Origin: a virus
Lineage: Duplodnaviria; Caudoviricetes
Direction: 5' to 3' (one strand)
IMG/VR virus record: IMGVR_UViG_3300031553_000024
Span: 1-31,032 of that record
Length of the DNA stretch: 31,032 nucleotides
A model generated the notes under the pieces. That model saw only the letters and a program-made list of their open reading frames with translations, had not been told where the DNA came from and did no database searches. This document shows, in pieces, positions 1 to 29,428 of the stretch; positions within the stretch are counted from its first letter, which is position 1, and every line of letters begins with the position of its first letter. A program made the translations under genes and the position numbers.

Positions 1-179
1 CTCCAAACAGGCCGCCGGCGATCATCCGCCTTAGTCTCACAAATACCACCCGACGAACATCTCAGGCACATCCTGCGCTGGCCCGAGCACAGAGTCGCCC
101 CCCTCGGCCAACAGGCTCAGCCCCGCCCCAAGCCCACAATTCATGTCCGAAAACTTACACAATCTTTACGGACAGGTCC

Positions 180-208
180 TTGACATTATATACATGGTGT
201 GCTATAAT
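180..208 (+). promoter_or_regulatory. sigma70-type promoter (early)
   Basis: TTGACA (180-185), 17 bp, TATAAT (203-208), with extended -10 TG; upstream of a purine-rich RBS and the first ORF. Confidence 0.85.
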
Positions 209-243
209 GAGACCGTGAGAGAAAGAAAAGAGGGAGGGGAGCA

Positions 244-402
244 ATGAAAGGCAAATGGGAATTTTGGGCGGAGAAGTGGGCGGGCCCCTCCGGGGCCGAG
301 GCCGAGATTGTTGTCACCAAGAGCGAGCCGGTAGTGGGGTGGTGGCCATATACACACATGCTGACATTCGACAGCGGCGAAACTTATCTCGTTGGAGCAT
401 AA
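244..402 (+). CDS. small hypothetical protein (52 aa, MKGKWEFWAEK...)
   Basis: Own translation; strong GGAGGGGG RBS; first ORF after the promoter; below the ORF-track cutoff. Confidence 0.6.
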   Translation: MKGKWEFWAEKWAGPSGAEAEIVVTKSEPVVGWWPYTHMLTFDSGETYLVGA

Positions 403-424
403 TGCTGAAGGGCGAGGAGAGAAC

Positions 425-727
425 ATGGCCAATACAATGATTACGGTTCTGATAGACGTGGAGCAGTTGGCGGGGCTCGATAGATATATCGAGCCCCGGG
501 GGCGGTCGGAGTTTATCCGCGGCGCGATCAAGCTCCGGCTGGCGTTAGAGCCGATGCTGGGGTCTTGGCGGGTAGAGGAGCAGATCGAACGTGTTCGGGA
601 CGCGCTAAGGGGAGGGCACGATGAACAGATACGAGGTGTGGGATCAGTGCACGCCGGAGGAAGCGGAGGCGCTGGCAGCGGGGATGTACGACGCGGACCA
701 TCCCCGGACGAGCCATCATCCGACTGA
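425..727 (+). CDS. ribbon-helix-helix (CopG/Arc-like) transcriptional regulator
   Basis: ITVLID..LAGLDRYI...RSEFIRGAIKLRL pattern; GAGGAG RBS before ATG 425. Confidence 0.7.
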   Translation: MANTMITVLIDVEQLAGLDRYIEPRGRSEFIRGAIKLRLALEPMLGSWRVEEQIERVRDALRGGHDEQIRGVGSVHAGGSGGAGSGDVRRGPSPDEPSSD

Positions 728-890
728 GGAGGGTCGGTATCGAGGGGGCAACTATGGTTGGCGTTATGTGCCAGCCGACCGGACCGGCGACTGGGGGGCA
801 GAGTGGGAGCCCGAGCCCGCGCCATGGCAGCGAGAGCCGGCGGGCTGGGATGACATGCCCGAGCCCGAGGGGGAGGCCGGGATGCTCTAG
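621..890 (+). CDS. acidic hypothetical protein
   Basis: ORF with GGGAGGG RBS. Confidence 0.6.
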   Translation: MNRYEVWDQCTPEEAEALAAGMYDADHPRTSHHPTEEGRYRGGNYGWRYVPADRTGDWGAEWEPEPAPWQREPAGWDDMPEPEGEAGML

Positions 891-974
891 AATGGGCGGC
901 GGCCACACAGTTGTGGGAGCGGGGCACCTGAGCGGGGCATAGTGAAACCGAAAGCACAGAGAGGAGTGCACAAC

Positions 975-1265
975 ATGAGGCGGATTGTCGCGGGAAAAAG
1001 GTTCGACACAGCGACGGCCACGGTCGTGACCAGCGACCGCTACTGGGACGGGCGCAACTGGGAGCGCAGCGGCCGGAATCAATATCTGTACAGGACGCGG
1101 AACGGGAGTTACTTTGTGGTGAGTACTAGCCTGTGGCAGGGCGAGCGCGACACCTTGGAGCCCATCGACGAGGCGGCGGCCCGGGATCTGTACGAGCAGG
1201 TCCTGCTCGAACATGAATTGGAATACGAGGCCGCCTTCCCGGGTGCGGTCGTCGAGGACGCGTAG
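975..1265 (+). CDS. conserved phage hypothetical protein
   Basis: GKRFDTATA...LYRTRNGSYF...EPIDEAAAR resembles a recurring small phage protein family; GAGGAG RBS. Confidence 0.7.
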   Translation: MRRIVAGKRFDTATATVVTSDRYWDGRNWERSGRNQYLYRTRNGSYFVVSTSLWQGERDTLEPIDEAAARDLYEQVLLEHELEYEAAFPGAVVEDA

Positions 1266-1337
1266 GTAGCAAGGGGCGCGCCCGGGGTGAACACCGCGAC
1301 GGGACCTGACCACAGCGCCGACCAGGGAGGCTTTACA

Positions 1338-1460
1338 GTGGACACGAAAACGTGAACGGGCTACAGTGGGTACACGCGCCAACGGAGCGAGCGGCGACCG
1401 AGGCCGTGGGAACGCGAGCCCGAGGGCTGGGATGATATACCGGAGAGGGATGATGGCTGA
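1338..1460 (+). pseudogene. interrupted remnant paralogous to the C-terminus of ORF 621-890
   Basis: GGGAGG RBS, GTG, in-frame TGA at codon 6, then PWEREPEGWDDIPE (compare PWQREPAGWDDMPE). Confidence 0.4.
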
Positions 1461-1788
1461 ATACACAGAGACAGCAGACGTCGAGTGGGTGGCCGCTGAG
1501 GACGCGCGTACATGGGCAGTGCTTGGGCCTCTCGTGCAGTGTCCAGCGTGTCATGGGGCGATGATGCAAGGGAGTGATGAGACGCCCTGCCCCTGTGATC
1601 TTTGTGCCGGGACGGGGAGGGTTGCGCGCAGCTGTGCAGACGAGTATCTCCGGCTGCTGCACGAATACGAAACGCTGACCGCCGACTATGACAGGATGAT
1701 GACTTGGTACGGAGCAAGCCAGAAGCGCATCGCCGAGCTGCGCGGGGAGCGCGATCGGTACAAGTCGCAGTTGGGCGGGTGGCTATAA
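1450..1788 (+). CDS. zinc-finger protein (CxxCxG...CxxCxGxG) with coiled-coil tail
   Basis: CPACHG and CDLCAGTG motifs. Confidence 0.6.
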   Translation: MMAEYTETADVEWVAAEDARTWAVLGPLVQCPACHGAMMQGSDETPCPCDLCAGTGRVARSCADEYLRLLHEYETLTADYDRMMTWYGASQKRIAELRGERDRYKSQLGGWL

Positions 1789-1871
1789 TGCTGCGCCCGT
1801 CTATCAGAGAACAAGGCCTAGGATGGGCATGGGCGGCGGGGCAACTCGCCGCCCATGAAAAAAGGAGAGCG

Positions 1872-3032
1872 ATGACAGACGCTGGAGAGCTGACGAAGCA
1901 TGAGAGCGCGACGGTGGACACTAATGTGCTGGAGCAGGTGGTGGTCGGCGGAGACTTGGCGCAACTCACAGCACGAGAGCGAGTAGAGTACTACAGCCAA
2001 GTCTGCAAGAGCCTCGCCCTGAACCCGCTGACGCGGCCGTTTGCATATATCAAGCTCCAAGGGCGTTTGACGCTTTACGCGCTTCGGGGCGCGACGGACC
2101 AACTGCGCCGGATCCATGGGGTGAGTGTCGAGGACATGCGCATTGAACAGGCGGGCGGGCTGGTCACGGTTACCCTATCCGTCACTACCGGCGATGGCCG
2201 CAAAGACATTGAGGTGGGCGTCGTGCCACTGCCCGGGGCGCCAATCGGGGATGCCAATGCGGTGATGAAAGCGGTGACGAAGGCCAAGCGCCGGGCGACG
2301 CTGAGCGCGGTGGGGTTGGGATGGCTGGACGAAACGGAGGCAGAGACCATCCCGGACGCCAAGATCGTCACTGTGAACGAAGACACAGGGGAGATTGAGA
2401 GCGAGCAGGCTGCATCATTCGAGGGCAATGGCTGGCGTGGGTTTTTCGACACCGCCGCTGCCAAGACCGGAATCAGTGTCCAGCAACTCAAGAGCTACAT
2501 GGGGGATCCTGCCGATTATGCACACCTGAGCGGCAACGCCAAGAGCGACCTAGCCAAGCAACGGATATCCGTTGGGCTAGACGCCGCCATGGCGGCAGAC
2601 GGCGTATCCGAGCGCGCAGAGGGCCGGCGCAACGCGCCCCCAGCGGACACAGCGCATCGCGCCAGGGGGCGGCGGCCAGAAACCCCGGACGCGGTTCGCG
2701 CCCGGATCCAAGCCGCGGTAGCCACATTGGAGCCCAACAATATTCAGGTGTCCGACGGAGAGCGGGGAGCTATGACCGGTGCATTGGAGAGCCTCTTGCC
2801 GGACATAGCCCCGGCTGCCCGGGCTGCCCAGCGGCACCTGCTGTGCCGCTATCTTGTTGGGGCAGAGAGCAGCAAGGAGATGAATGGCGCTCAGGTGAGG
2901 GCGCTCGCGAACTGGGCACAGGACTATGTAGATAACCAGTATGTGCCGAATCAGGACGCCAAAGCAGAGGCTGGCCAGATCATCGTCTGGCTTGAGCAGG
3001 AAGAAGAAGATGCCGCAACGAGAACACCTTGA
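1872..3032 (+). CDS. probable ssDNA-annealing recombinase (RecT/Redbeta/Sak-like) with long C-terminal extension
   Basis: LNPLTRPF..IKLQGRLTLY and NAVMKAVTKAKRRATL motifs; AAGGAG RBS; early-region position. Confidence 0.55.
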   Translation: MTDAGELTKHESATVDTNVLEQVVVGGDLAQLTARERVEYYSQVCKSLALNPLTRPFAYIKLQGRLTLYALRGATDQLRRIHGVSVEDMRIEQAGGLVTVTLSVTTGDGRKDIEVGVVPLPGAPIGDANAVMKAVTKAKRRATLSAVGLGWLDETEAETIPDAKIVTVNEDTGEIESEQAASFEGNGWRGFFDTAAAKTGISVQQLKSYMGDPADYAHLSGNAKSDLAKQRISVGLDAAMAADGVSERAEGRRNAPPADTAHRARGRRPETPDAVRARIQAAVATLEPNNIQVSDGERGAMTGALESLLPDIAPAARAAQRHLLCRYLVGAESSKEMNGAQVRALANWAQDYVDNQYVPNQDAKAEAGQIIVWLEQEEEDAATRTP

Positions 3033-3189
3033 GGCCCATGACTGGGCACAACGCTCGCCGCCGAGGGCGATGTGACTATATGGCTACGAAAGGTCACTAT
3101 CACAACCGAATACGGTTACTTCCTAGTCGAGGGATCCACGTACAGTACCCCGGGGAGGCGGCCCCGGGGTATACACAAAGGGAAGGGAA

Positions 3190-3591
3190 ATGATGGAGGA
3201 AGAAGCAGGCAGGCCGAGAAACCACTGGGGGATCACATTCGGGACCAGGCGGATCAATTTGCCCTTCAGGCTGGTAAACGACCCGGACTATACCGATCAG
3301 GCAATCCGACTAGCCGTGTTCCTAGACTGGTGCTCAAAGCGGAGAGAGGAGTCGGTCCGGCACGCCATCCCTGGGTGGCGTCTGGCAATAGAACTGGACT
3401 GGAGCGAGGCTCGTGCGCTAAGCACTGCTACGGAACTGGCCGAGCGCGGATGGATCGCGATACGGTACGGCCCTCAGTGGGAGCGCAGCGCATACGACAC
3501 CCGGGAGAGCATTCTCTACGACCTGCATTATGAGATAAAGATGCAGGAAGGGGAGGGCGGAAAGAGTGATGACAAAGTGGAGAAGGGTTAG
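3190..3591 (+). CDS. hypothetical protein
   Basis: ORF with RBS in a tightly packed operon. Confidence 0.55.
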   Translation: MMEEEAGRPRNHWGITFGTRRINLPFRLVNDPDYTDQAIRLAVFLDWCSKRREESVRHAIPGWRLAIELDWSEARALSTATELAERGWIAIRYGPQWERSAYDTRESILYDLHYEIKMQEGEGGKSDDKVEKG

Positions 3592-3832
3592 AGTCGTTGA
3601 TCGTAGCATGTGGGGCTATGGTCCATATCCTCGGATTGTAAGCGTATCCGTGCCATGGATCTGCCCAGTGTGCGGCGGCCCGAGGGGCGAGCCCAAGGAG
3701 CATCACTTCTATGAGGGCGGCGACTGGTACACCTGCAGCGTGTGGGACAATCCGTGTGGCCACGTTGACAAAGACGCGGCCGTCCTGGCAGAGGGAGCGC
3801 ACTACTGGGCGGCGCGGGGGAGGCCACGATGA
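3566..3832 (+). CDS. small zinc-binding hypothetical protein
   Basis: CPVCGGPRG...CSVWDNPCGH; ATGA overlap with the next gene. Confidence 0.6.
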   Translation: MMTKWRRVRVVDRSMWGYGPYPRIVSVSVPWICPVCGGPRGEPKEHHFYEGGDWYTCSVWDNPCGHVDKDAAVLAEGAHYWAARGRPR

Positions 3833-4134
3833 ATCTCTACACGGTTATGAGCGAGGAGATTTGGTATACCGAGAAGATTCTAGCCGGCTCTGGGCCACGG
3901 GAGATATACATCATCGCAGAATTGGTCATCGCACGGAACCGAAGCCAGGCCACGTGGCTGGCCTGGAAAAGCGACCCTGCCTATTGGGTATATGATGACA
4001 TTCACGAGATGCCCAAGTTCTCGGTGCACATCAAAAAGCACGGCGTGGCCGGGCCAGCGCGGATAGTGACAGAAGAACTCGGAGAGGAAGGGGAGGCATT
4101 ATGGGGTCTGAACGAGGCAACCTCGACGACCTAA
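3829..4134 (+). CDS. hypothetical protein
   Basis: ATGA-coupled ORF with GGAGG RBS. Confidence 0.6.
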   Translation: MNLYTVMSEEIWYTEKILAGSGPREIYIIAELVIARNRSQATWLAWKSDPAYWVYDDIHEMPKFSVHIKKHGVAGPARIVTEELGEEGEALWGLNEATSTT

Positions 4135-4649
4135 TGGGGCTACACGCGCAAGTCGAGGATTCCGTGGAGGAGACAGAGAGTGTTGTCAGGGCCTTGCGCA
4201 GGCCCTACAGTCTGCTGCCGAATGCCTGGTGGCTGAGAAGGCAGGCCGACAGGATAAAGGCGGCAAGGGACTCGGTCCTGTTGCTCGTCGATGATCTACG
4301 TAAGCTGCAGGAGTTATATGCGCGCATGGCAAGAGGGCCCGACGAACAGATGGCCGAGGAGGGCAATTGTGGCGAAATGGCTGAGCCACTGCGCAGGTTG
4401 CAAGCCTTGGTCGGGAGACGATTGCCCTGTGGGGGGTTTGAGGAGTCGTTTTGGGATCTCTCCAAAAAGATGGGATGGGCCGGGATCCATTACGAGGCCG
4501 GCCTGGGCGGCGGTTGGTTCGTGCGGGCCGGGGCCCGTATCGGCACTGACTATATAACTGACGAACATCATGATCCGGAGGCTGCTCTGGCGGAAGCCGA
4601 AGCCGCGGCGGATGCTATAGGGAAAGAGATGGAGGAAGATAGCGGATGA
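4134..4649 (+). CDS. hypothetical protein
   Basis: TAATG coupling upstream, ATGA coupling downstream. Confidence 0.55.
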   Translation: MGLHAQVEDSVEETESVVRALRRPYSLLPNAWWLRRQADRIKAARDSVLLLVDDLRKLQELYARMARGPDEQMAEEGNCGEMAEPLRRLQALVGRRLPCGGFEESFWDLSKKMGWAGIHYEAGLGGGWFVRAGARIGTDYITDEHHDPEAALAEAEAAADAIGKEMEEDSG

Positions 4650-12094: not shown

Positions 12095-12313
12095 GTGAGA
12101 GAGTTGCTCAGGACGGATTTGGCGGGGAAAGTGGCTTTGCTGGCGACGCAGGGCGAATTCGAGTTGCTCGCCAAGTTGGGGTTACTGAATGAGGAGTTCA
12201 ACGTAACATGGGTGGAGACGCAGTGTGAGAAGTGGTTGCAGACACGGAGGGAACCGGAAGTTACAGAGGGCGGGTTTGTGGTTTGGCTAAGGCGTCTATT
12301 GCTGGGATGGTAG
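12095..12313 (+). CDS. hypothetical protein, paralog A
   Basis: Clear similarity to 12414-12713. Confidence 0.55.
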   Translation: MRELLRTDLAGKVALLATQGEFELLAKLGLLNEEFNVTWVETQCEKWLQTRREPEVTEGGFVVWLRRLLLGW

Positions 12314-12413: not shown

Positions 12414-12713
12414 ATGGAATGGATTGGGGCGGATCCCCAGGCGCAAAAAGTAGTGTTGGTGGCGAGAGAGGGCGAACTGGAATTGCTTCAGGCGCTGGGC
12501 GTGATGGATGACAAGTTCGAGGTAACATGGGTCAATAACCCTTGGGAGAAGTGGGTGAAAAAAGAGAGGAAACTGGAAGTTAGAGAACACAACGCGCGGG
12601 CCTTAGCGAAGCTCTATCGGGACCTTGGCTTAGCGTCGTGTGCCGAGTCAGAGGGGAAACGGCAAGACCAGACACGATACCAGAAGCCCCCTGCAGAAGG
12701 AGAAGGAGGATGA
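12414..12713 (+). CDS. hypothetical protein, paralog B
   Basis: KVVLVAREGELELLQALGVMDDKFEVTWV vs KVALLATQGEFELLAKLGLLNEEFNVTWV; GGAGGGG RBS. Confidence 0.6.
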   Translation: MEWIGADPQAQKVVLVAREGELELLQALGVMDDKFEVTWVNNPWEKWVKKERKLEVREHNARALAKLYRDLGLASCAESEGKRQDQTRYQKPPAEGEGG

Positions 12714-12827: not shown

Positions 12828-13496
12828 ATGGACCGCTACGATGTGCAACTGACATTCACAAGGGCGCTGCTAGGCGCAGTGCCACTTGATCCTGAGCTCT
12901 ATCGGAGATGGATTATAGATCATCGGGGGATCGACCCAGAGCAGGCGGCGGACGAACTCGAATCGGCGGCATTGGGATTTGAGGGGATCGATGAGGAGAC
13001 GACGAAGGGCACGACAGGATTCCACAGGACACCTGTCGGGGAGCCTGCATTGTATGACTACGTGCTGAAAGGGTTTTTCAAGGACGCCTGCGGGATGCTT
13101 CGGCGCGATACTAGCTCGGCAAGCGCCAAGGTGCGGGCCTACAAGAAGGTCATCGATGGGATGGTATTTGTAGAGCCACGGCTAATTCCTCTGGGCCTGA
13201 AGGGGCAAGACGCCAGTGAGTCGCCCGTATCGACAATGGGGCTCTGGGAATGGGCAGGCGACGAGGGCGTGCTTACGCGGCCATTGCGTGGACAAACGGC
13301 ACAAGGCGAGCGCGTCGCATTGGCAAGGAGCATCGCCGTCCCGGCAGGCACCACCATGGAATTTCGCGTATTGATTCTCGGGGTGGTGAAGCAAAGCCTG
13401 CTAGAGGAATGGTTCACTTACGGCGCGCTGCGTGGTCTCGGGCAGTGGAGAAACGGGGGGTGGGGTTCCTTCGAGTATGAGTTGACAAAGCGATAG
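12828..13496 (+). CDS. solitary Cas7/RAMP-superfamily RNA-binding protein
   Basis: First strand YDVQLTF..ALLG; GEPALYDYVLKGFFKDA (compare RAMP G.P.IPGSSLKG..R); AVPAGTTMEFRV; C-terminal Gly-rich loop GLGQWRNGGWGSF; GGAGG RBS. Confidence 0.8.
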   Translation: MDRYDVQLTFTRALLGAVPLDPELYRRWIIDHRGIDPEQAADELESAALGFEGIDEETTKGTTGFHRTPVGEPALYDYVLKGFFKDACGMLRRDTSSASAKVRAYKKVIDGMVFVEPRLIPLGLKGQDASESPVSTMGLWEWAGDEGVLTRPLRGQTAQGERVALARSIAVPAGTTMEFRVLILGVVKQSLLEEWFTYGALRGLGQWRNGGWGSFEYELTKR

Positions 13497-13748
13497 CGAT
13501 GCAATGCAGCGCGTCGCCGCGGCGACGCGCTGCACAGCAAAGGCGTGGCCGGGCGACGCGCTGCAGCGCGGAGCAGCGCGCAGCACAGCAAGGGCGACGC
13601 ACGGCGATGCGTCGCACAGCAAAGGCGGGGCGGGGCGCTGCAGCGCGCGGCACAGCAAAGGCGGGGCACGGCGCAGCAGCGCGCAGCACAGCAAGGGCGA
13701 GGCGCTGCGGGGCGACGCGCAGCCCAGCATAGGCACAGCGATGGCAAC
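13496..13748 (+). repeat. 5-nt-periodic GCR-NN array with 11-nt anchors; candidate guide/ncRNA locus
   Basis: 49 consecutive GC-led modules, 46 with a purine at position 3; GCACAGCAA(A/G)G at 13532, 13583, 13614, 13650, 13686; degenerate copies at 13722 and 13733. Confidence 0.9.
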
Positions 13749-13749
13749 G

Positions 13750-13779
13750 TTGACGAGTGGCGGAAACAGGCCCTAAAAT
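13750..13779 (+). promoter_or_regulatory. possible sigma70 promoter right after the array
   Basis: TTGACG, 18 bp, TAAAAT; followed by AGGAGG and GTG 13805. Confidence 0.45.
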
Positions 13780-13804: not shown

Positions 13805-14260
13805 GTGGCTAAATCGTGTAGCGTTTGTGAGCATCCGGACCGCGAAGCCATCGACAAGGCATTGCGCGAGGGCGTTACGCCATACAAGTTGGCTCAGCGG
13901 TATGGCCTTCCCAAGGAATCCTTGCGGCGCCATAGAACCAATCATGTGGGGATGCCGACTGTCAAAGAAGGCTTGATCTCGTGGGGGCCGAGGCGCACCA
14001 GGGCCATCTCTGCTTGGTGGGACGGGCAAGGTGGTAACGTGAAGGGGATGGCGGCGCGGATCCAGAACCTAACCGCTGACGTTGATCCTGTTCAGCGGTT
14101 GGCGGGGGCGGTCATTGCCTCCGCCCGTGCAGCGGCGGACCGAGAGTTCTTTGGCCTCGGAGAGGACGCGGAGCTTGCAGCGGATGGCCAGTTCTGGATC
14201 GCTCTGGCGGAGCTGGATCCGGAGCGCGTGGCCAGCCTTGTAAAGGGATTGGGGGGGTGA
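13805..14260 (+). CDS. CxxC-H/HTH DNA-binding protein (TerS-like N-terminus)
   Basis: CSVCEHPDREAIDKAL..G.....LAQRYGL....LRRH..NH. Confidence 0.65.
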   Translation: MAKSCSVCEHPDREAIDKALREGVTPYKLAQRYGLPKESLRRHRTNHVGMPTVKEGLISWGPRRTRAISAWWDGQGGNVKGMAARIQNLTADVDPVQRLAGAVIASARAAADREFFGLGEDAELAADGQFWIALAELDPERVASLVKGLGG

Positions 14261-14969: not shown

Positions 14970-15002
14970 GAGGCGGCCGAATGACGGACAGTGGAGGGCG
15001 TG

Positions 15003-15635
15003 ATGGCTAGACCGGTCTTTGTGGTCGGCATGCACCGCAGCGGCACCAGCATGGTGGCAGGGATATTGGCGCATCTGGGGATTCCCATGGGGCATAACCT
15101 GACAGCGGCAGACTGGTCCAATCCATATGGTCATTATGAGGACAAACAGTTCACGGCCATCAATCGGGACGGCTTGCGGGCAGCCGGTGGAGACTGGCGG
15201 CATCCGCCCTTGCCTTGGGCGATTAGCGGCGCGGGCATGGCCTCCCGGGCGCGTGAATATATCGCCCGGCGGGAAGAAGATATAGGAAAGGATGCGTACT
15301 GGGGTGCTAAGGACCCACGCATGGCTCTAACGCTGCACGTTTGGTTGCCATTGCTGGGCGGGGCACGATGGATTATTGTTAGGCGTCCTCTAAATGAAAT
15401 CTGCGCCTCACTCGCGAAGCGGAATCAAATGCCGGAGTCGGAGGCAATAGAGCTTTGGGCGCATTACATCGCAGCGATTAGCCTCGGGCTGATTGATGAA
15501 TCAGAAGCGGATGTGTGCGTCGCGCATTATAAGGAGATCACTGGGGAGCCACGCCAGGGCGTCGAGAGGCTCGCCGAGTGGCTTGGGGTTCCTTGTACCG
15601 AAGAGGCGATTCAGCATGTGAGGAGAAAGCAATGA
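15003..15635 (+). CDS. sulfotransferase family protein
   Basis: VVGMHRSGTS (PAPS 5'-PSB loop), GHYED, WGAKDPR, R.P....ASL. Confidence 0.85.
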   Translation: MARPVFVVGMHRSGTSMVAGILAHLGIPMGHNLTAADWSNPYGHYEDKQFTAINRDGLRAAGGDWRHPPLPWAISGAGMASRAREYIARREEDIGKDAYWGAKDPRMALTLHVWLPLLGGARWIIVRRPLNEICASLAKRNQMPESEAIELWAHYIAAISLGLIDESEADVCVAHYKEITGEPRQGVERLAEWLGVPCTEEAIQHVRRKQ

Positions 15636-16246
15636 GCGTTCTGCCAGTCGTAATGGTGACACCGGCCTTGCCAGAATCCGCCATAAGGCGTTGGGGTGAC
15701 GAGGAGATATTGGAGCAGATCGTAGTCTGGGATACGAAATGTCAGCGCTATACAAGGACAGTGAATCGAGGCATTCGGATAGCATTGCAGCGAGCACGTG
15801 CGGATGTTTACGATAAGGAACTGGAATATATCTTATTGGCAAATGATGATTGCCAGCCACAGACGGCCAATTGGATCGCAGAGTTGATCTGGGCTATGGC
15901 TCAGAACGAAAGCCTGGGCTATGTCGCACCGGGCCAGCCATGCCGCACCGAAGGGATGATGGAAGCGACAGGGCCAACCGAGACACCCCAAATCAAGGAA
16001 ATATTCGCTGTCCCCTTCGGATGCGTGCTGATTCGGCGCAGTGTCTTTAGGGACGTCGGCTTATTGGATGAGAGATTCCGGCACTATGCGTCGGATACGG
16101 ATCATCAATATCGCGCCAGGGCGTTTGGCTGGAAGAGCGCATGGTGCCCACATGTCTGGGTTGATAGGGAGGCACATGCGCCAAAACTAATGGACCTATG
16201 GCAAGAGGACCGAAAGTTATTCTATGGGCGGTGGGGCAATGAGTGA
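15632..16246 (+). CDS. glycosyltransferase, GT-A/GT2-like
   Basis: VNRGI, LLANDD, CVLIRRSVFRDVGLLDERF..Y.SDTD...RA...GW. Confidence 0.85.
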   Translation: MSVLPVVMVTPALPESAIRRWGDEEILEQIVVWDTKCQRYTRTVNRGIRIALQRARADVYDKELEYILLANDDCQPQTANWIAELIWAMAQNESLGYVAPGQPCRTEGMMEATGPTETPQIKEIFAVPFGCVLIRRSVFRDVGLLDERFRHYASDTDHQYRARAFGWKSAWCPHVWVDREAHAPKLMDLWQEDRKLFYGRWGNE

Positions 16247-16919
16247 GCATCCGATAGTGGTCGTGGCGCCGCTCAACTTGGGCATGATTCGCCCCGAGCT
16301 CGCCTATGCTATAGCACACTGGGTGTTGACTGGGGGCGACAGACTTCGAGTGCTCATAGATCCCGATGCCAACAGCAAGCCCACAAGCGACAATCGCAAC
16401 CGAACCTGTTCGCGGTTTTTGGCGCACCCCGACAAGCCCGAGGTATTGTTCATGATAGACGCGGACATTGCGGCGCCGAGCCCGATACCATATGCGCTCA
16501 AGATGTGCGAACAGGATAGGCCCTACGACATCATCGGGATGCTCTGCCCTGCGTGGCAGCCCATAACGTATCCGGATGCGCCGTTGCGGTGGATGGCGTT
16601 CGACCTTTCGCCAGAAGGACGACTCGTGCAGGACAAAGCGAAACTGAATGCCCCCGGGCTATTGCGTTGGGACCTGGTTGGCTCGGGGGCGCTTCTGATC
16701 CATAGACGCGTGTTAGAGGACCCAAGCATGGCGGCGCCTTTTGCAGACCGTTTCGATGGACGGGGATTCAGAGTGAGCGGCCACGATTTTGAGTTTTGCC
16801 GAAGGGCCGGCATGGCCGGATACAAGACCTGGGTGGCAATGGACGCAAGGTGTGGTCATCAGGTGACGGTGGACTTGACGGATGTGGCCCGGGTCTTGGC
16901 GCATGCTGAGCAGCACTAA
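16239..16919 (+). CDS. glycosyltransferase, GT-A-like
   Basis: NRN...FL, FMIDAD, VGSGALLIHRRVLE, GHDFEFCRRA...G, CGH. Confidence 0.8.
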   Translation: MSEHPIVVVAPLNLGMIRPELAYAIAHWVLTGGDRLRVLIDPDANSKPTSDNRNRTCSRFLAHPDKPEVLFMIDADIAAPSPIPYALKMCEQDRPYDIIGMLCPAWQPITYPDAPLRWMAFDLSPEGRLVQDKAKLNAPGLLRWDLVGSGALLIHRRVLEDPSMAAPFADRFDGRGFRVSGHDFEFCRRAGMAGYKTWVAMDARCGHQVTVDLTDVARVLAHAEQH

Positions 16920-19174: not shown

Positions 19175-20992
19175 GTGCCAGGGAGCCTCGCAGTGACCAT
19201 CAAGCCGAACCTGTTGGGGCGCGTCTTGCGTTATGCCATTGACGGCGTACGTTATGGGGCCCGAGAGAACGACAAGACGAATACGTCGGCGGCGGGGATG
19301 TACGGCCTGCCATTGCAGGCGCATAGCAAGGCGTCGCGTTGGCAATCGGATGCCGTTGACACTGATGCGGCATATCGCAATGCTGTCTGTGCATCCTGGG
19401 TCTATGCCGATCTGATGCTCATCTCGCGGCGAATCGCTTCTGCCAAATGGGAGGTGAAGGACCGCCAGGGCGAGGAGCTGATTGATCTGGGGAACCATCC
19501 CTTTGAGCGGCTCTGGGCCAGGCCGGGCGGGACATTTACGGGTGGGCTGCTCGCTCAATATCTCACGTGGTGGTACTTGCTTCGCGGGGAGGCCTTCCTA
19601 TTCGTGAGCTCGGATGCTCCTGGTCGCGGTGAGCCCAGGGAGCTATGGCCCCTGGTCGCTAGTGCCTGCAAGCCCAATGTCGAGACCTTGCGCAAGAGTG
19701 CCCTGACGGGCATGCCGATTGTGGACTACGCCTACAATGTGGGCAATGAGTCGTTCCTCCTCCCCGGCGAGAACGTCGTGCATTTTCGCACGCCGAACCC
19801 ATTCGATTATTGGCGGGGGCTCTCACCCCTGAGCGCGGCAATGGACGGCATCACCCTCGATTTGGGCGCGCGTCGGTGGCAAAGAGACTTTTATCGAAAC
19901 GATAATGCTATCCCCGCCGCCGTGGTGAGCTTACCGGAAAACATGCTGCCAGTGGACTTTGATCGCATTACGGCGCACATCCAACAAGACATTCAGAATG
20001 GCAAACGCCTGTTCTTTACGCGGGCGGGCGGTCTTTCCGTAGATGTGATCCAACAGGCCATGGCGGATATGCAGTTTGTCGAAAGCCGTGCCTTTACCAA
20101 GGGAGAAATTGATAAGATATACGGCGTTCCGACCGGCCTCCTGGACGGGGGCAATTCCGGTGATGCCCAGCAGGCCATAGAAATCACTTTCGGGCGTAAC
20201 ACGGTCCAGCCGATGCTCGATTATTTCGCAGATGAGCTGACCGCCAAGGTCGGGCCATTCTACGGCGAGGGGATCGTTATCGCCGCGCCTTCCGTGGTCC
20301 CGCAAGACCGGTCACTTGAGATAGCGGAATATCAAGCATACAGCAGGGACCGGACGCTGAACGAGAATCGGGCCGAGCGGAGCCTGGCCCCGATAATGGG
20401 GTTCCCAGCCCAGATTGGCGACCTGGACATCACAGATGTCCCCGTCCGGCTTTTGGAACTTTTGCCGCCAGGCTCGCTTGTGTCCACCATGGCAGGGGCA
20501 GCAACGCCAGCAGTGACAACGCCACAGGCGAACACCCCGGCCGTCGGAGATGACGTACCTATAGCGAGCTTGCCCCAACTTGAGGCGCCGTCCGCGGTTA
20601 CCGCCTCTACACTGGCCGAAAAGGCGGCTCAGCTTGGTATAGCGACTGAACTCAAGCGCTGGGAGCATGTGGCGGCTAAGGAGATCAAAGAGGGGCGCGC
20701 GCCTGGGGAACGCGCCTTTGAGAGTGATGTGCTCCCGTCGGGCCTGAAGGAAGGGATTATGCAAGCCCTCACTTTGGCGGACACAGAGGCAGATGTGCGC
20801 GCGGCTTTCCAGTCGCCCTTTTTTCGCCAAAGCCGTCCGAGAGACGGCGAGCGGGGAAAAAGACCCGAACGCGGACGCGAAGGATCAAGACGAGACGAAA
20901 CTGGAACGGACTCTGCGGCTGTCGTTGGGCCAACAACTGCGTCGGGTTCTAGCACTCCTGGGATGGCCCCCGGACATAGCGGGGCTCAGTGA
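19175..20992 (+). CDS. portal protein (start may be GTG 19193)
   Basis: HPFERL..RP, LRGEAF, VVHFR.PNP.D..RGLSPL, F..NTVQP; follows TerL. Confidence 0.92.
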   Translation: MPGSLAVTIKPNLLGRVLRYAIDGVRYGARENDKTNTSAAGMYGLPLQAHSKASRWQSDAVDTDAAYRNAVCASWVYADLMLISRRIASAKWEVKDRQGEELIDLGNHPFERLWARPGGTFTGGLLAQYLTWWYLLRGEAFLFVSSDAPGRGEPRELWPLVASACKPNVETLRKSALTGMPIVDYAYNVGNESFLLPGENVVHFRTPNPFDYWRGLSPLSAAMDGITLDLGARRWQRDFYRNDNAIPAAVVSLPENMLPVDFDRITAHIQQDIQNGKRLFFTRAGGLSVDVIQQAMADMQFVESRAFTKGEIDKIYGVPTGLLDGGNSGDAQQAIEITFGRNTVQPMLDYFADELTAKVGPFYGEGIVIAAPSVVPQDRSLEIAEYQAYSRDRTLNENRAERSLAPIMGFPAQIGDLDITDVPVRLLELLPPGSLVSTMAGAATPAVTTPQANTPAVGDDVPIASLPQLEAPSAVTASTLAEKAAQLGIATELKRWEHVAAKEIKEGRAPGERAFESDVLPSGLKEGIMQALTLADTEADVRAAFQSPFFRQSRPRDGERGKRPERGREGSRRDETGTDSAAVVGPTTASGSSTPGMAPGHSGAQ

Positions 20993-22535
20993 TGCCATCT
21001 TCTGGTCGGCGGAATTGCAAGAGGTCGTGCGGATACTCCGGCCCGAGTTGGAGCGTATGGCCTTGGTAGCGGCGGCGACAACCTATGCAGCCCTGCCCGT
21101 GGGCGTGGACTGGGCGCTAGTGGCTCTCGATGCAGCAGAATGGGCGACGACCTATAGCTATGATCTAGTGACGGGCTTGAACGAATATAGTCAGAAGGTT
21201 TTGCGCCAGAAGGTGCCACAGTTCATAGACACGCCGGGGCAGACGATTGGCGACCTCCGACGCGAGCTAACGCCGACGTTCGGCCCGCAACGCGCCGAGA
21301 GTATCGCGGTGACCGAGGTTACCCGAGCATATGGTGAGGGCGAGCGCATGATGGCAGCGCGGGCCCAGGAGGCGGGATTAGAACTCACGGCCTACTGGCA
21401 GACAGTGAAAGACGAAAAGGTGTGTCCTCTCTGTGCCCCCCTGGATGGGCAGCCGCAAAACAGGTGGGCTGAACTCTCGCCAGGCGCGGACTGGGTGCCT
21501 CGGCATCCAGGATGCATTCTACCCGGGAATATAGTCATAGTGCCCGGGGGCGCGGAAGCGGCAGTGCAATCGTTCTATGTCGGCGGGGCGGTTGAGATGC
21601 GTCTTGAGAACGGGAGCAGGCTCACCGTTACCAAGAATCACCCGATATTGACGGGGCGTGGCTGGGTTGCGGCTGATGTCCTTCGCGAGGGCGATTATAT
21701 ATTCTACGGCGGCAGCGCCCAAGGGATAATGTTTCCCGTCGACCCAAACGACCAAGAGGTGCCAGCCGCTGTTGAGGATATATATCGTACGCTCAAAGAA
21801 TCGGCTGCGATGGCGACCAAACGCATGCCACTTGCCACCGAAGACCTCCACGGCGAGGGCGCTTGCATCGAGGGCGATGTCAATATTGTATATCCCAAGA
21901 GCATATTGTGCGATGGGGATAAGCCCGTGGGCAGCCAGCCCGGTGGCCAGCGTGCGCTCTACAGGGCTAATGGTCAACAGCCGGCTCTGGCGGGTTTGGG
22001 CCTGATGGCGCCGTTCCTCCCACGACGGGATGCGCCCGACATTGGCGGCATGGGCGGCTCTAACCTGGGCCTCTCGCTGAAGAGCAGACATCCGGTCCCA
22101 TTTGAGGTGTCCGGCCAGGCTGCGGCCGCGAGGAGTAATATCCGCCTTCAACAAGCGACGGCGGAAAGTCGAGCGATTGGCCCCGGCCTCATGCGCGAGG
22201 GCATTCTCAGACTCTCCGGCCAAATAGCGGGCCAACAACAAGTCGAGCCCAGGAATAGCGATCCGGTCGCGCTGTTGGCCTCCCGTCGGCAGCCGTGGCA
22301 ATCCCGCGCGACGGAAGCGCCCGAGGATCGTATTGGCATGACAGCCATACTCCAGGGCCAGCTGACTGGCAGTCTCGCCGGCCATATAGCGCCGATGCAA
22401 ATCGTAGATGTTCGGCATTTCGACTATTCGGGACATGTCTATGACCTCCAAGCTGGTGTGGGAGGGATATACATGGCATCTGGGGTGATTGTCAAAAACT
22501 GCAGATGCTTCATTGTCCACAGATGGAAGGCATAG
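20793..22535 (+). CDS. MuF (SPP1 gp7-like) minor head protein, intein-containing
   Basis: RAESIAVTEVTRAY, W.T..DEKVCPLCAPLDG; the P.HPG|CRC motif is split by the intein. Confidence 0.88.
   Translation: MCARLSSRPFFAKAVRETASGEKDPNADAKDQDETKLERTLRLSLGQQLRRVLALLGWPPDIAGLSDAIFWSAELQEVVRILRPELERMALVAAATTYAALPVGVDWALVALDAAEWATTYSYDLVTGLNEYSQKVLRQKVPQFIDTPGQTIGDLRRELTPTFGPQRAESIAVTEVTRAYGEGERMMAARAQEAGLELTAYWQTVKDEKVCPLCAPLDGQPQNRWAELSPGADWVPRHPGCILPGNIVIVPGGAEAAVQSFYVGGAVEMRLENGSRLTVTKNHPILTGRGWVAADVLREGDYIFYGGSAQGIMFPVDPNDQEVPAAVEDIYRTLKESAAMATKRMPLATEDLHGEGACIEGDVNIVYPKSILCDGDKPVGSQPGGQRALYRANGQQPALAGLGLMAPFLPRRDAPDIGGMGGSNLGLSLKSRHPVPFEVSGQAAAARSNIRLQQATAESRAIGPGLMREGILRLSGQIAGQQQVEPRNSDPVALLASRRQPWQSRATEAPEDRIGMTAILQGQLTGSLAGHIAPMQIVDVRHFDYSGHVYDLQAGVGGIYMASGVIVKNCRCFIVHRWKA
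21513..22499 (+). mobile_element. intein (329 aa) in MuF
   Basis: N-terminus CILPGNIV; block B LTVTKNHPILT..GWV.A..L..GD; block F VYDL; C-terminus GVIVKN followed by a Cys +1 extein. Confidence 0.9.
21519..22436 (-). CDS. antisense endonuclease: tandem HTH plus DUF559/Vsr-like PD-(D/E)XK domain (305 aa)
   Basis: GGAGG 8 nt before ATG 22436; two HTH repeats; SPVE..L...QY..G.Y.IDIA....LAVEV.G..WH...GW..L.VW. Confidence 0.8.
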   Translation of the reverse strand: MSRIVEMPNIYDLHRRYMAGETASQLALEYGCHANTILGRFRRAGLPRLPTGGQQRDRIAIPGLDLLLARYLAGESENALAHEAGANRSTFRRRLLKADITPRGRSLAGHLKWDRMSALQREAQVRAAHAANVGRIPSWEERRHQAQTRQSRLLTISPVERTLATGLAAHGLIPIAQYALGIYNIDIALDASALAVEVFGGKWHAFGRHRSRFFERTIYILNSGWHLLVVWVDGKHYPLGAAAVEYIIALAKDISRNPATPRQYRVILGNGEPAPVLKTHLNRPADIERLHCRFRAPGHYDYIPG

Positions 22536-28161: not shown

Positions 28162-28586
28162 GCTTGAGTAGCGTCCTGGCCGCCATGCAGACGATCAATA
28201 GTAACGTAACCGGCGTGGCGCAGGCATTCACGCGGCCGCCACAGGTCATAGACACGGCCGACATTCCCTCCCTGATCACCTACTGGCAAAGTTCGGCGAT
28301 CACCAATCCGAACTATACGCAACGCGAAGTCACCCACACAATCATGATCCGGCTCGTAGGCGAACCGCTGGGCCAGAACATCGATCATGCTGCCCGACAA
28401 GAGCGGCTGGAGCCCTTTTTCGAGCGGGTGCTGGACGCATACGATGGCGCCGTGCAACTGGGATCGCTGAGTGGTGTACACCGAAGCGAGATCATCAACG
28501 CCGTGGCCAATTGGGCAGGAGAATACGCAACGATAGAGTTCACCTTCCAGATAACAGAAAAGTACAATGTGACGGTGGGGTTATAA
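28158..28586 (+). CDS. putative tail terminator/completion protein
   Basis: Size and synteny between connector and tail tube. Confidence 0.55.
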   Translation: MSLSSVLAAMQTINSNVTGVAQAFTRPPQVIDTADIPSLITYWQSSAITNPNYTQREVTHTIMIRLVGEPLGQNIDHAARQERLEPFFERVLDAYDGAVQLGSLSGVHRSEIINAVANWAGEYATIEFTFQITEKYNVTVGL

Positions 28587-28588
28587 CA

Positions 28589-29428
28589 TTGTCTGATGAC
28601 GTGAGCGTTGTGGTGGCAATCCCCTCTGAGCGGATGATGTACGCGGAGGCAGTCCATAGCTTGATGACGATCATCGCGCGAGGCAATTCGTTTATGGGGC
28701 ATGGGTATGCGCGGACTGACATAACGCGCAACGAAATGGCCGCAACGCTGCTGAGGCAAACATTCACCCACATCCTCATGCTGGACAGCGATCACATACA
28801 CCCTCCGGACATTGTGGCAAAGTTGGCGCAATGGCCAGCGCGAGACCGAGACAAGTTCATGGTGGTGGGCGGCCTCAACTTCCGCCGGGGGGTTCCCTAT
28901 GATCCCTGCGCCTACATGTGGAACGATGGAAAGCTAGCGCCAATCCACCGATGGCCAGATGACGCATTGTTGAAAGTTGATGTTCTAGGGTCTGGAAGCA
29001 TCTTGATAGATCGGCGTGTTTTCGAGCGACTCCCTTACCCCTGGTTCGGCTATGACTATAGCTTGCTGGACGCGCTCGGGTGGCCCGAGTGCGGAGTCGA
29101 AGGGCTGAGGGCGGCTACGTGGCCGGGGACAGACGTCTGGTTTTCAAAGCTGTGTAACAAAGCCCATATAGATCAGTGGGTTTATAGTGGGGTGTCCTCC
29201 CCACACATAATGCACACCACGATAACCCAGGCAGTCCGCGAGGCCTTTTTGCGCGCGGCGGAAGCACACGGGGAAATAATCACTGTGACAAAACCTACCC
29301 GCGCCCATATCCCAGAAAACGGAGGCGACAAATGCCAAAGCGACGACGGCGAGCGGTCGGAGCACGATGGCGCCCGCGTGCCATTGGCAGGAGCGTTACC
29401 ATTCGCGGAATCCCTGCCAGAGACCTGA
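28589..29428 (+). CDS. glycosyltransferase, GT-A-like, within the tail operon
   Basis: ITRN, THILMLDSDH, LGSGSILIDRRVFE.L..PWF, GTDVWF; similar to 16239-16919. Confidence 0.8.
   Translation: MSDDVSVVVAIPSERMMYAEAVHSLMTIIARGNSFMGHGYARTDITRNEMAATLLRQTFTHILMLDSDHIHPPDIVAKLAQWPARDRDKFMVVGGLNFRRGVPYDPCAYMWNDGKLAPIHRWPDDALLKVDVLGSGSILIDRRVFERLPYPWFGYDYSLLDALGWPECGVEGLRAATWPGTDVWFSKLCNKAHIDQWVYSGVSSPHIMHTTITQAVREAFLRAAEAHGEIITVTKPTRAHIPENGGDKCQSDDGERSEHDGARVPLAGALPFAESLPET

Follow-up and report, generated by a model that had tools for sequence, protein, structure and literature searches.

A pentamer-plus-hexamer array beside a RAMP gene in a salt-marsh phage, probably a VIPR guide locus, and its natural alleles

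Introduction

What could a phage encode in a run of GC-led modules, most of them five nucleotides long and some six, that begins where a gene ends? The question arises in a 31,032-nt stretch of viral DNA (the window), for which a first-pass annotation had proposed a non-coding array of separate guides delimited by 11-nt anchors. VIPR systems consist of a phage RAMP protein (Vipr) and RNAs made of 5-nt repeats, in which NN bases pair with DNA with a 1-nt skip, and have been described as a phage tool for silencing rival DNA (bioRxiv 10.64898/2026.04.26.720920). Alternative repeats (NNNGG, YNNNG and NNNNG) and "staggered" arrays with vrRNAs at 1-nt overlapping positions have also been reported (10.64898/2026.04.26.720920). 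The array studied here is most probably the guide-RNA array of such a system. The family, non-GGY scaffolds and staggered arrays being already in print, the locus itself is no surprise; what it adds is useful evidence of array turnover.

Results and discussion

Genomic context

The window is a 31-kb fragment of a virus record with methylase, resolvase, replication, terminase, portal and capsid genes, and the runs that contain its sequence are labelled as salt-marsh metagenomes; none of the 18 runs listed for it is an RNA dataset. No cas genes were found among the 45 ORFs scanned and no CRISPR array in the 31 kb. This is a minimal virus-borne locus of the VIPR kind, on a contig that is itself a fragment. 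Many relatives are temperate, as an integrase is present in 29 of 43 records; no integrase was found in the 39.6-kb record of this phage. In that sister contig (G001), window positions 1-4446 are missing, save for bases 1-127, which match in reverse far downstream. Concerning other genes, sulfotransferase- and glycosyltransferase-like genes (14991-16919 and 28511-29428) lie close to packaging and head genes and could be involved in virion or DNA modification, and a MuF-like head-morphogenesis gene (20793-22535) has a weak match to an intein splicing domain.

Table 1. Features at and around the array (positions in the window).
Feature	Position	Strand	Remarks
vipr-like gene	12828..13496	+	222 aa; single RAMP domain and C-terminal G-loop; GGAGG ribosome-binding site upstream
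Predicted vrRNA array	13496..13748	+	49 GC-led modules: 41 pentamers, 8 hexamers
Five GCACAGCAA(A/G)G anchors	13532..13696	+	exact starts 13532, 13583, 13614, 13650, 13686
Anchor hexamers	13537, 13588, 13619, 13655, 13691	+	clade-conserved unit boundaries; give the G so that the following unit opens with GGC
Junction of the 330-nt in-register deletion relative to the long allele	13628..13629	+	directly past an anchor; L001 3801/4132
Sigma70-like promoter match	13750..13779	+	just 3' of the array; likely for the next gene; weak (1 found, 0.6 expected)
151-aa ORF	13805..14260	+	CxxC and HTH-like stretch, read by eye

Architecture of the array

An unseeded parse, which follows GC every 5 or 6 nt, reproduced the 49 consecutive GC-led modules reported before, 46 of them with a purine at position 3 (3/49 without), and yields 50 modules if one at 13490 that overlaps the stop codon of the upstream gene is included. 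The first base of the array is the last base of that stop codon. Elsewhere in the window the longest GC chain on either strand has 7 modules, and in 2000 dinucleotide shuffles of the array the longest chain averaged 6.3 modules with a maximum of 15. The five exact anchors were found where the first-pass annotation had placed them, and the five NN strings between them are identical to its listing; an additional 6-nt break at 13516 does not lie within any anchor. The 5/6-nt period breaks codon phase, as had been remarked. The anchor spacing of 11+5n is also present, but it is the mere arithmetic of one hexamer per unit.

The 11-nt anchor had been read as a processing or handle site. Of 729 homologous units, only 58 have GCACA in front of the hexamer, but a final G is found in 697 of 747 hexamers. 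What is conserved as a boundary is therefore the 6-nt module, the 11-mer being a homogenised form of it peculiar to this phage; phase breaks do bound units clade-wide (747 internal units), with the hexamer and not the 11-mer as the boundary element. In the long allele described below the hexamers end in G (18/18), so every unit opens with a canonical GGC. The canonical GGY scaffold, a type II feature, is otherwise lacking, as only the first module of each unit has it.

RNA structure in the array was considered and rejected, since the z-score of -4.0 against dinucleotide shuffles falls to -1.6 (12/200) against module shuffles. No conserved structured tail was identified after the array, and Rfam and tRNA searches gave no match. 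Because the array abuts the stop codon and no promoter match lies between it and the vipr-like gene, both would be co-transcribed by read-through.

The upstream gene encodes a predicted RAMP protein

The vipr-like gene adjoining the array had been overlooked in the first-pass annotation. The AF2 (AlphaFold) model of its product (pLDDT 86.7) matched CRISPR RAMP chains in all the first 27 rows of the VIA fold search (best Z 11.9, rmsd 3.6, 160 residues aligned, with a Csm chain), and Foldseek against CRISPR RAMPs gave an E-value of 7.7e-9. Its G-loop resembles that of Csm4/Cas7 (E 0.015), and a beta-hairpin at residues 146-171 of the model can be read as the thumb. According to the model, the protein is a single-domain RAMP with RRM core, thumb and G-loop, as in VIPR. 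Vipr chains were not among the fold-search matches, which is uninformative because the library ends in April 2026.

Regarding sequence relationships, no model for the protein was found in Pfam, PHROGs, NCBIfam or PADLOC, and a PDB search with the single sequence gave no match. The protein has 3875 homologues, and its nearest Atlas clusters are 89-98% viral. Its closest host-named relatives, with 50-53% identity, are in Chloroflexota assemblies, which may be taken as a weak hint of the host. HHalign aligned the family end to end with the Vipr family of phage SUSP1 (probability 79.2, E 1.6e-5, 180 columns, 20% identity), and SUSP1 Vipr was the top match of the family profile among 109 SUSP1 ORFs (E 0.0086). 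These alignments show a remote homology to the validated Vipr. The sequence used for SUSP1 Vipr was YP_009199429.1, in which H17, R138, D177, W178 and R179 agree with the numbering of the structure paper. W178 and R179 are retained as W207 and R208 in the phage protein, whereas T(A)17 and Q206 take the places of the G1-reading H17 and D177.

The accessory vap gene, usual in VIPR systems though not present in all, was also looked for, and no conserved one was found among 175 homologue loci, in which the array neighbour is not conserved. The 151-aa ORF behind the array occurs only in this phage's own 3 loci among the 175, and its clusters are unnamed (score 0.82); its assignment as a Vap is possible but unsupported. 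Just upstream of the vipr-like gene, two small paralogous ORFs (12095-12313 and 12414-12713, 49% identical over 49 aa) are also present only in this phage's loci.

Linkage and grammar across the clade

An array lies within 150 nt of the vipr-like gene in 156 of the 175 loci, downstream in 129, upstream in 23 and on both sides in 4; of the others, 11 have enough flank but no array within that distance, and 8 are too short. Dereplicated at 90% identity, the loci form 85 groups; 71 have the array beside the gene, 8 lack it and 6 are too short, and all 71 show the same pentamer-plus-hexamer grammar with at least 3 hexamers each. Internal units (n=747) have a modal length of 6 modules, and 429 hexamers have the form GCAANG. 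The clade parser was seeded with the hexamer, which somewhat inflates these hexamer shares; the parses of the window and of the long allele were unseeded. Per module, base use in the clade is G 0.93 and C 0.74, followed by three variable positions. These are adjacent 5-nt repeats with fixed and variable positions, as in VIPR, and they fit the published YNNNG/NNNNG.

Some loci depart from the common layout. Arrays of the same grammar that resemble orphan vrRNAs lie 1-10 kb from the vipr gene (L088:13931-14617, L090:20035-20305 and L077:1627-1810). In a Synergistaceae-associated relative (L087:9410-9960), GA-led modules replace the GC-led ones with the same hexamer breaks. Moreover, four long-flanked Vipr homologues (L091, L094, L168 and L172) have no adjacent array according to the parser and may use another repeat.

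Comparison with known systems

Like the staggered VIPR arrays (10.64898/2026.04.26.720920, figs S17-S18; compared by text and legends), the locus has a phage-borne stand-alone RAMP beside 5-nt tandem repeats, units that abut with a 1-nt offset and a repeat that fits YNNNG when read C-N-N-N-G. The 1-nt phase shifts between units are present, and the RNA may be processed at these boundaries, as in that type. The hexamer consensus, the unit lengths and the in-population block deletions found here are not in that paper's text. More generally, neither this hexamer nor array turnover within a population is mentioned in the accessible parts of the literature, but figures or supplements may cover the grammar.

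As far as the available part of the SUSP1 paper goes (10.64898/2026.04.26.720927), the Type II system of that Escherichia phage shares with this locus the end-to-end homology, the W/R pair of the G-loop and one repeat per 5 nt. It differs in its GGY/NN repeats, 9-16 per vrRNA, and in having separate vrRNAs with a pseudoknot tail and vap1, whereas GC-led modules, about 6 per unit, no detected tail or vap, and a replaced H17/D177 pair are found here. The system is therefore VIPR but not type II, as the GGY scaffold with 9-16 repeats per vrRNA is absent. It also resembles the non-canonical VIPR 5-mer clusters, period-5 arrays with non-GGY cores located beside Vipr-like folds (bioRxiv 10.64898/2026.10.21.760802); in the accessible part of that work, the examples from the 21 clusters are GAC/NN, CAC/NN, WGT/NN and TGH/NN, unlike the GC core of this array. 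With Cas7/Csm3/Cmr4 of Class 1 CRISPR it shares the RAMP fold and G-loop, but there is no cas operon or repeat-spacer array here and the code would be non-contiguous.

Natural alleles and array turnover

Natural alleles of one array were found: a long form, one lacking 330 nt, one lacking 119 nt and one rearranged with 32 new in-register bases. The long form (L001) encodes an identical protein, matches the window without a single difference in its flanks (3668 nt upstream, 2418 nt downstream), and has a chain of 114 modules versus 50 in the window. Among 8 runs examined of the 18 listed, assembled as contigs, several at depth below 5 and X1-X3 being possible sources of the DNA, the 330-nt skip is present in three (X1, X5 and X6) and the long form in X3. 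In run X2 the skip is 119 nt long and has 14 nt of shared sequence at an anchor; X8 combines a skip of 290 nt with a 32-nt insert of new GC-led modules. Both the 330-nt and the 119-nt deletions keep the register. Assembly collapse was rejected as the origin of the short allele, since the same joint occurs in X5 and X6, neither of them marked as a possible source.

The units of the long allele share 7 module triples versus 0.2 expected, and none of 5000 shuffles was as high; sharing so far above chance indicates that duplication and recombination shape the strings. In the short allele alone, triple sharing is not above chance (p 0.10). The strings had been considered too diverse for slippage and taken for about five to six independent guides. 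The first view is weakened by these repeated triples and by the block deletions between alleles, and the independence of the units has to be given up. The expectation that NN varies more than GCR was borne out, as related units differ more from one another at the variable positions than at the fixed ones.

Units would be lost and reshuffled through microhomology at the anchors. A tentative extension, which we regard as possible but doubtful, is that in this large VIPR clade the array is a self-editing guide tape, in which anchor-sized microhomologies delete, duplicate and recombine units in register within one phage population and so make new guides without an acquisition enzyme, specificity being gained by reading the short units either in a shifted scaffold (NGC|NN) or beyond the hexamer boundary. 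No account of how VIPR guides are gained or changed was found in the accessible published VIPR text, and this locus makes the question testable.

Target searches

Target enrichment over shuffles, a check proposed in the first-pass annotation, was not established, and no target was established for this phage or its relatives. As to self-targeting, none of 14 units had a perfect match under any of 12 rules, and the mean best match equalled that of shuffles. An exact IMG/VR scan with the phage's longest unit returned 0 matches in register 4-5 and, in register 3-4, 8 stretches of one gene family that stop short of the hexamer, a chance-level result. When 301 genomes from the class to which a Chloroflexota relative belongs were scanned with at most 1 mismatch, there were 2 matches versus 2 in the control and 4 versus 10. 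Scans with units of gut relatives found 22, 15, 2 and 5 stretches in unrelated genes, judged to be at chance level from pattern size and run without a control; follow-up scans of IMG/VR did not recover two candidate target genes, and no rule emerged convincingly from local skip-rule tests that applied no habitat filter. The right competitors are probably missing from the target databases.

Interpretation of the array

The same-grammar array beside the gene in 71 of 85 groups, the RAMP fold and the homology to SUSP1 Vipr fit VIPR, and a non-coding guide RNA with its information in the variable positions, as proposed at first, is supported as the most likely reading. By homology to the SUSP1 system, Vipr would polymerise on the array RNA, each 5-nt module being covered by one subunit, with the GC-containing scaffold buried and two bases per module left exposed for gapped pairing with double-stranded DNA by a 1-nt-skip rule. 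Each hexamer would break the register of the filament and so delimit separate guides of about 26-51 nt, as in the published staggered array, and rival elements, presumably competing phages or prophages, would be transcriptionally repressed by the bound filaments. The remote homology, the non-GGY scaffold, the failure to establish a target and the lack of a conserved vap gene are points against the VIPR reading. So are the short units: with a mode of 6 modules versus the published 9-16, a single unit would specify only about 8-14 nt.

This shortness, insufficient for genome-level specificity, speaks for an unlikely variant with the same protein and RNA, in which the guide is one long unprocessed or multi-unit RNA and the hexamer is read through, or in which three bases per module pair. 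Positions 3, 4 and 5 are indeed all variable, and sequencing has confirmed only ribozyme and single-vrRNA architectures, not staggered ones (10.64898/2026.04.26.720920). Against it, neither cross-hexamer windows nor a 3-base rule produced matches consistently in excess across 3.2 Mb of DNA from relatives, and the AA and G of the hexamer are nearly fixed, like a handle. It is less probable still that the array is a degenerate or decoy scaffold that binds Vipr, for self-regulation or to titrate a rival's Vipr, its variable bases subject to drift through slippage and recombination and encoding no targets. Low-complexity strings with module runs in common, frequent deletions, near-equal substitution at the variable positions and the targets not found would all agree with drift; yet the long allele has all 16 dinucleotides at positions 4-5, the grammar is held across 71 divergent groups, run X8 acquired modules in register, and missing competitors could account for the failed searches. 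That the repeat is instead a low-complexity ORF under translation, or a plain microsatellite with no relation to the gene upstream, is largely excluded and highly improbable. Open frames do run through the array on both strands, but stops are rare by composition, T making up only 4.7% of the array, and the disrupted codon phase, the lack of family matches and the close linkage of the array to the RAMP gene, whether downstream or upstream of it, contradict it.

Which bases pair

Within the VIPR reading, the coding dinucleotide may be positions 3-4 (NGC|NN, the YNNNG class) and not 4-5 as first annotated, and we lean slightly towards the former. Read as N-G-C-N-N, the repeat equals the published YNNNG, with the coding pair one base to the left of that annotated before. 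The replaced G1-reading residues were also counted for register 3-4. In a hand-picked set of gut relatives, the use of 3-4 dinucleotides correlates with codon positions 1-2 (r 0.63, versus 0.13), while with all habitats pooled codon use fits neither register. Moreover, 7-module skip-1 windows in register 3-4 gave 6 matches in relatives' DNA among 117, from 4 units, versus 1.5±1.0. Against within-array shuffles the excess of register 3-4 (sense-wobble) shrank to 4 strong matches versus 0-4, and register 4-5 (antisense) had a similar one, 4 versus 0-2, in 24 tests. Related units show similar levels of substitution at positions 3, 4 and 5, and neither substitution nor transition patterns separated the registers.

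The locus is suited to asking what the two pairing bases are in VIPR clades that lack GGY, and if guides of about 6 modules suffice; the pairing rule and the guide length both bear on the construction of minimal programmable repressors. Also counted in favour of register 3-4, one unit matches an ORF, which we take to be replication-initiator-like, at 17 of 18 bases and in frame. In addition, eight modules of one array (L059:3597-3636), also in register 3-4, match the antisense strand of the vipr gene of another gut phage (L022) at 16 of 16 bases, possibly by chance, with the skip on codon position 1.
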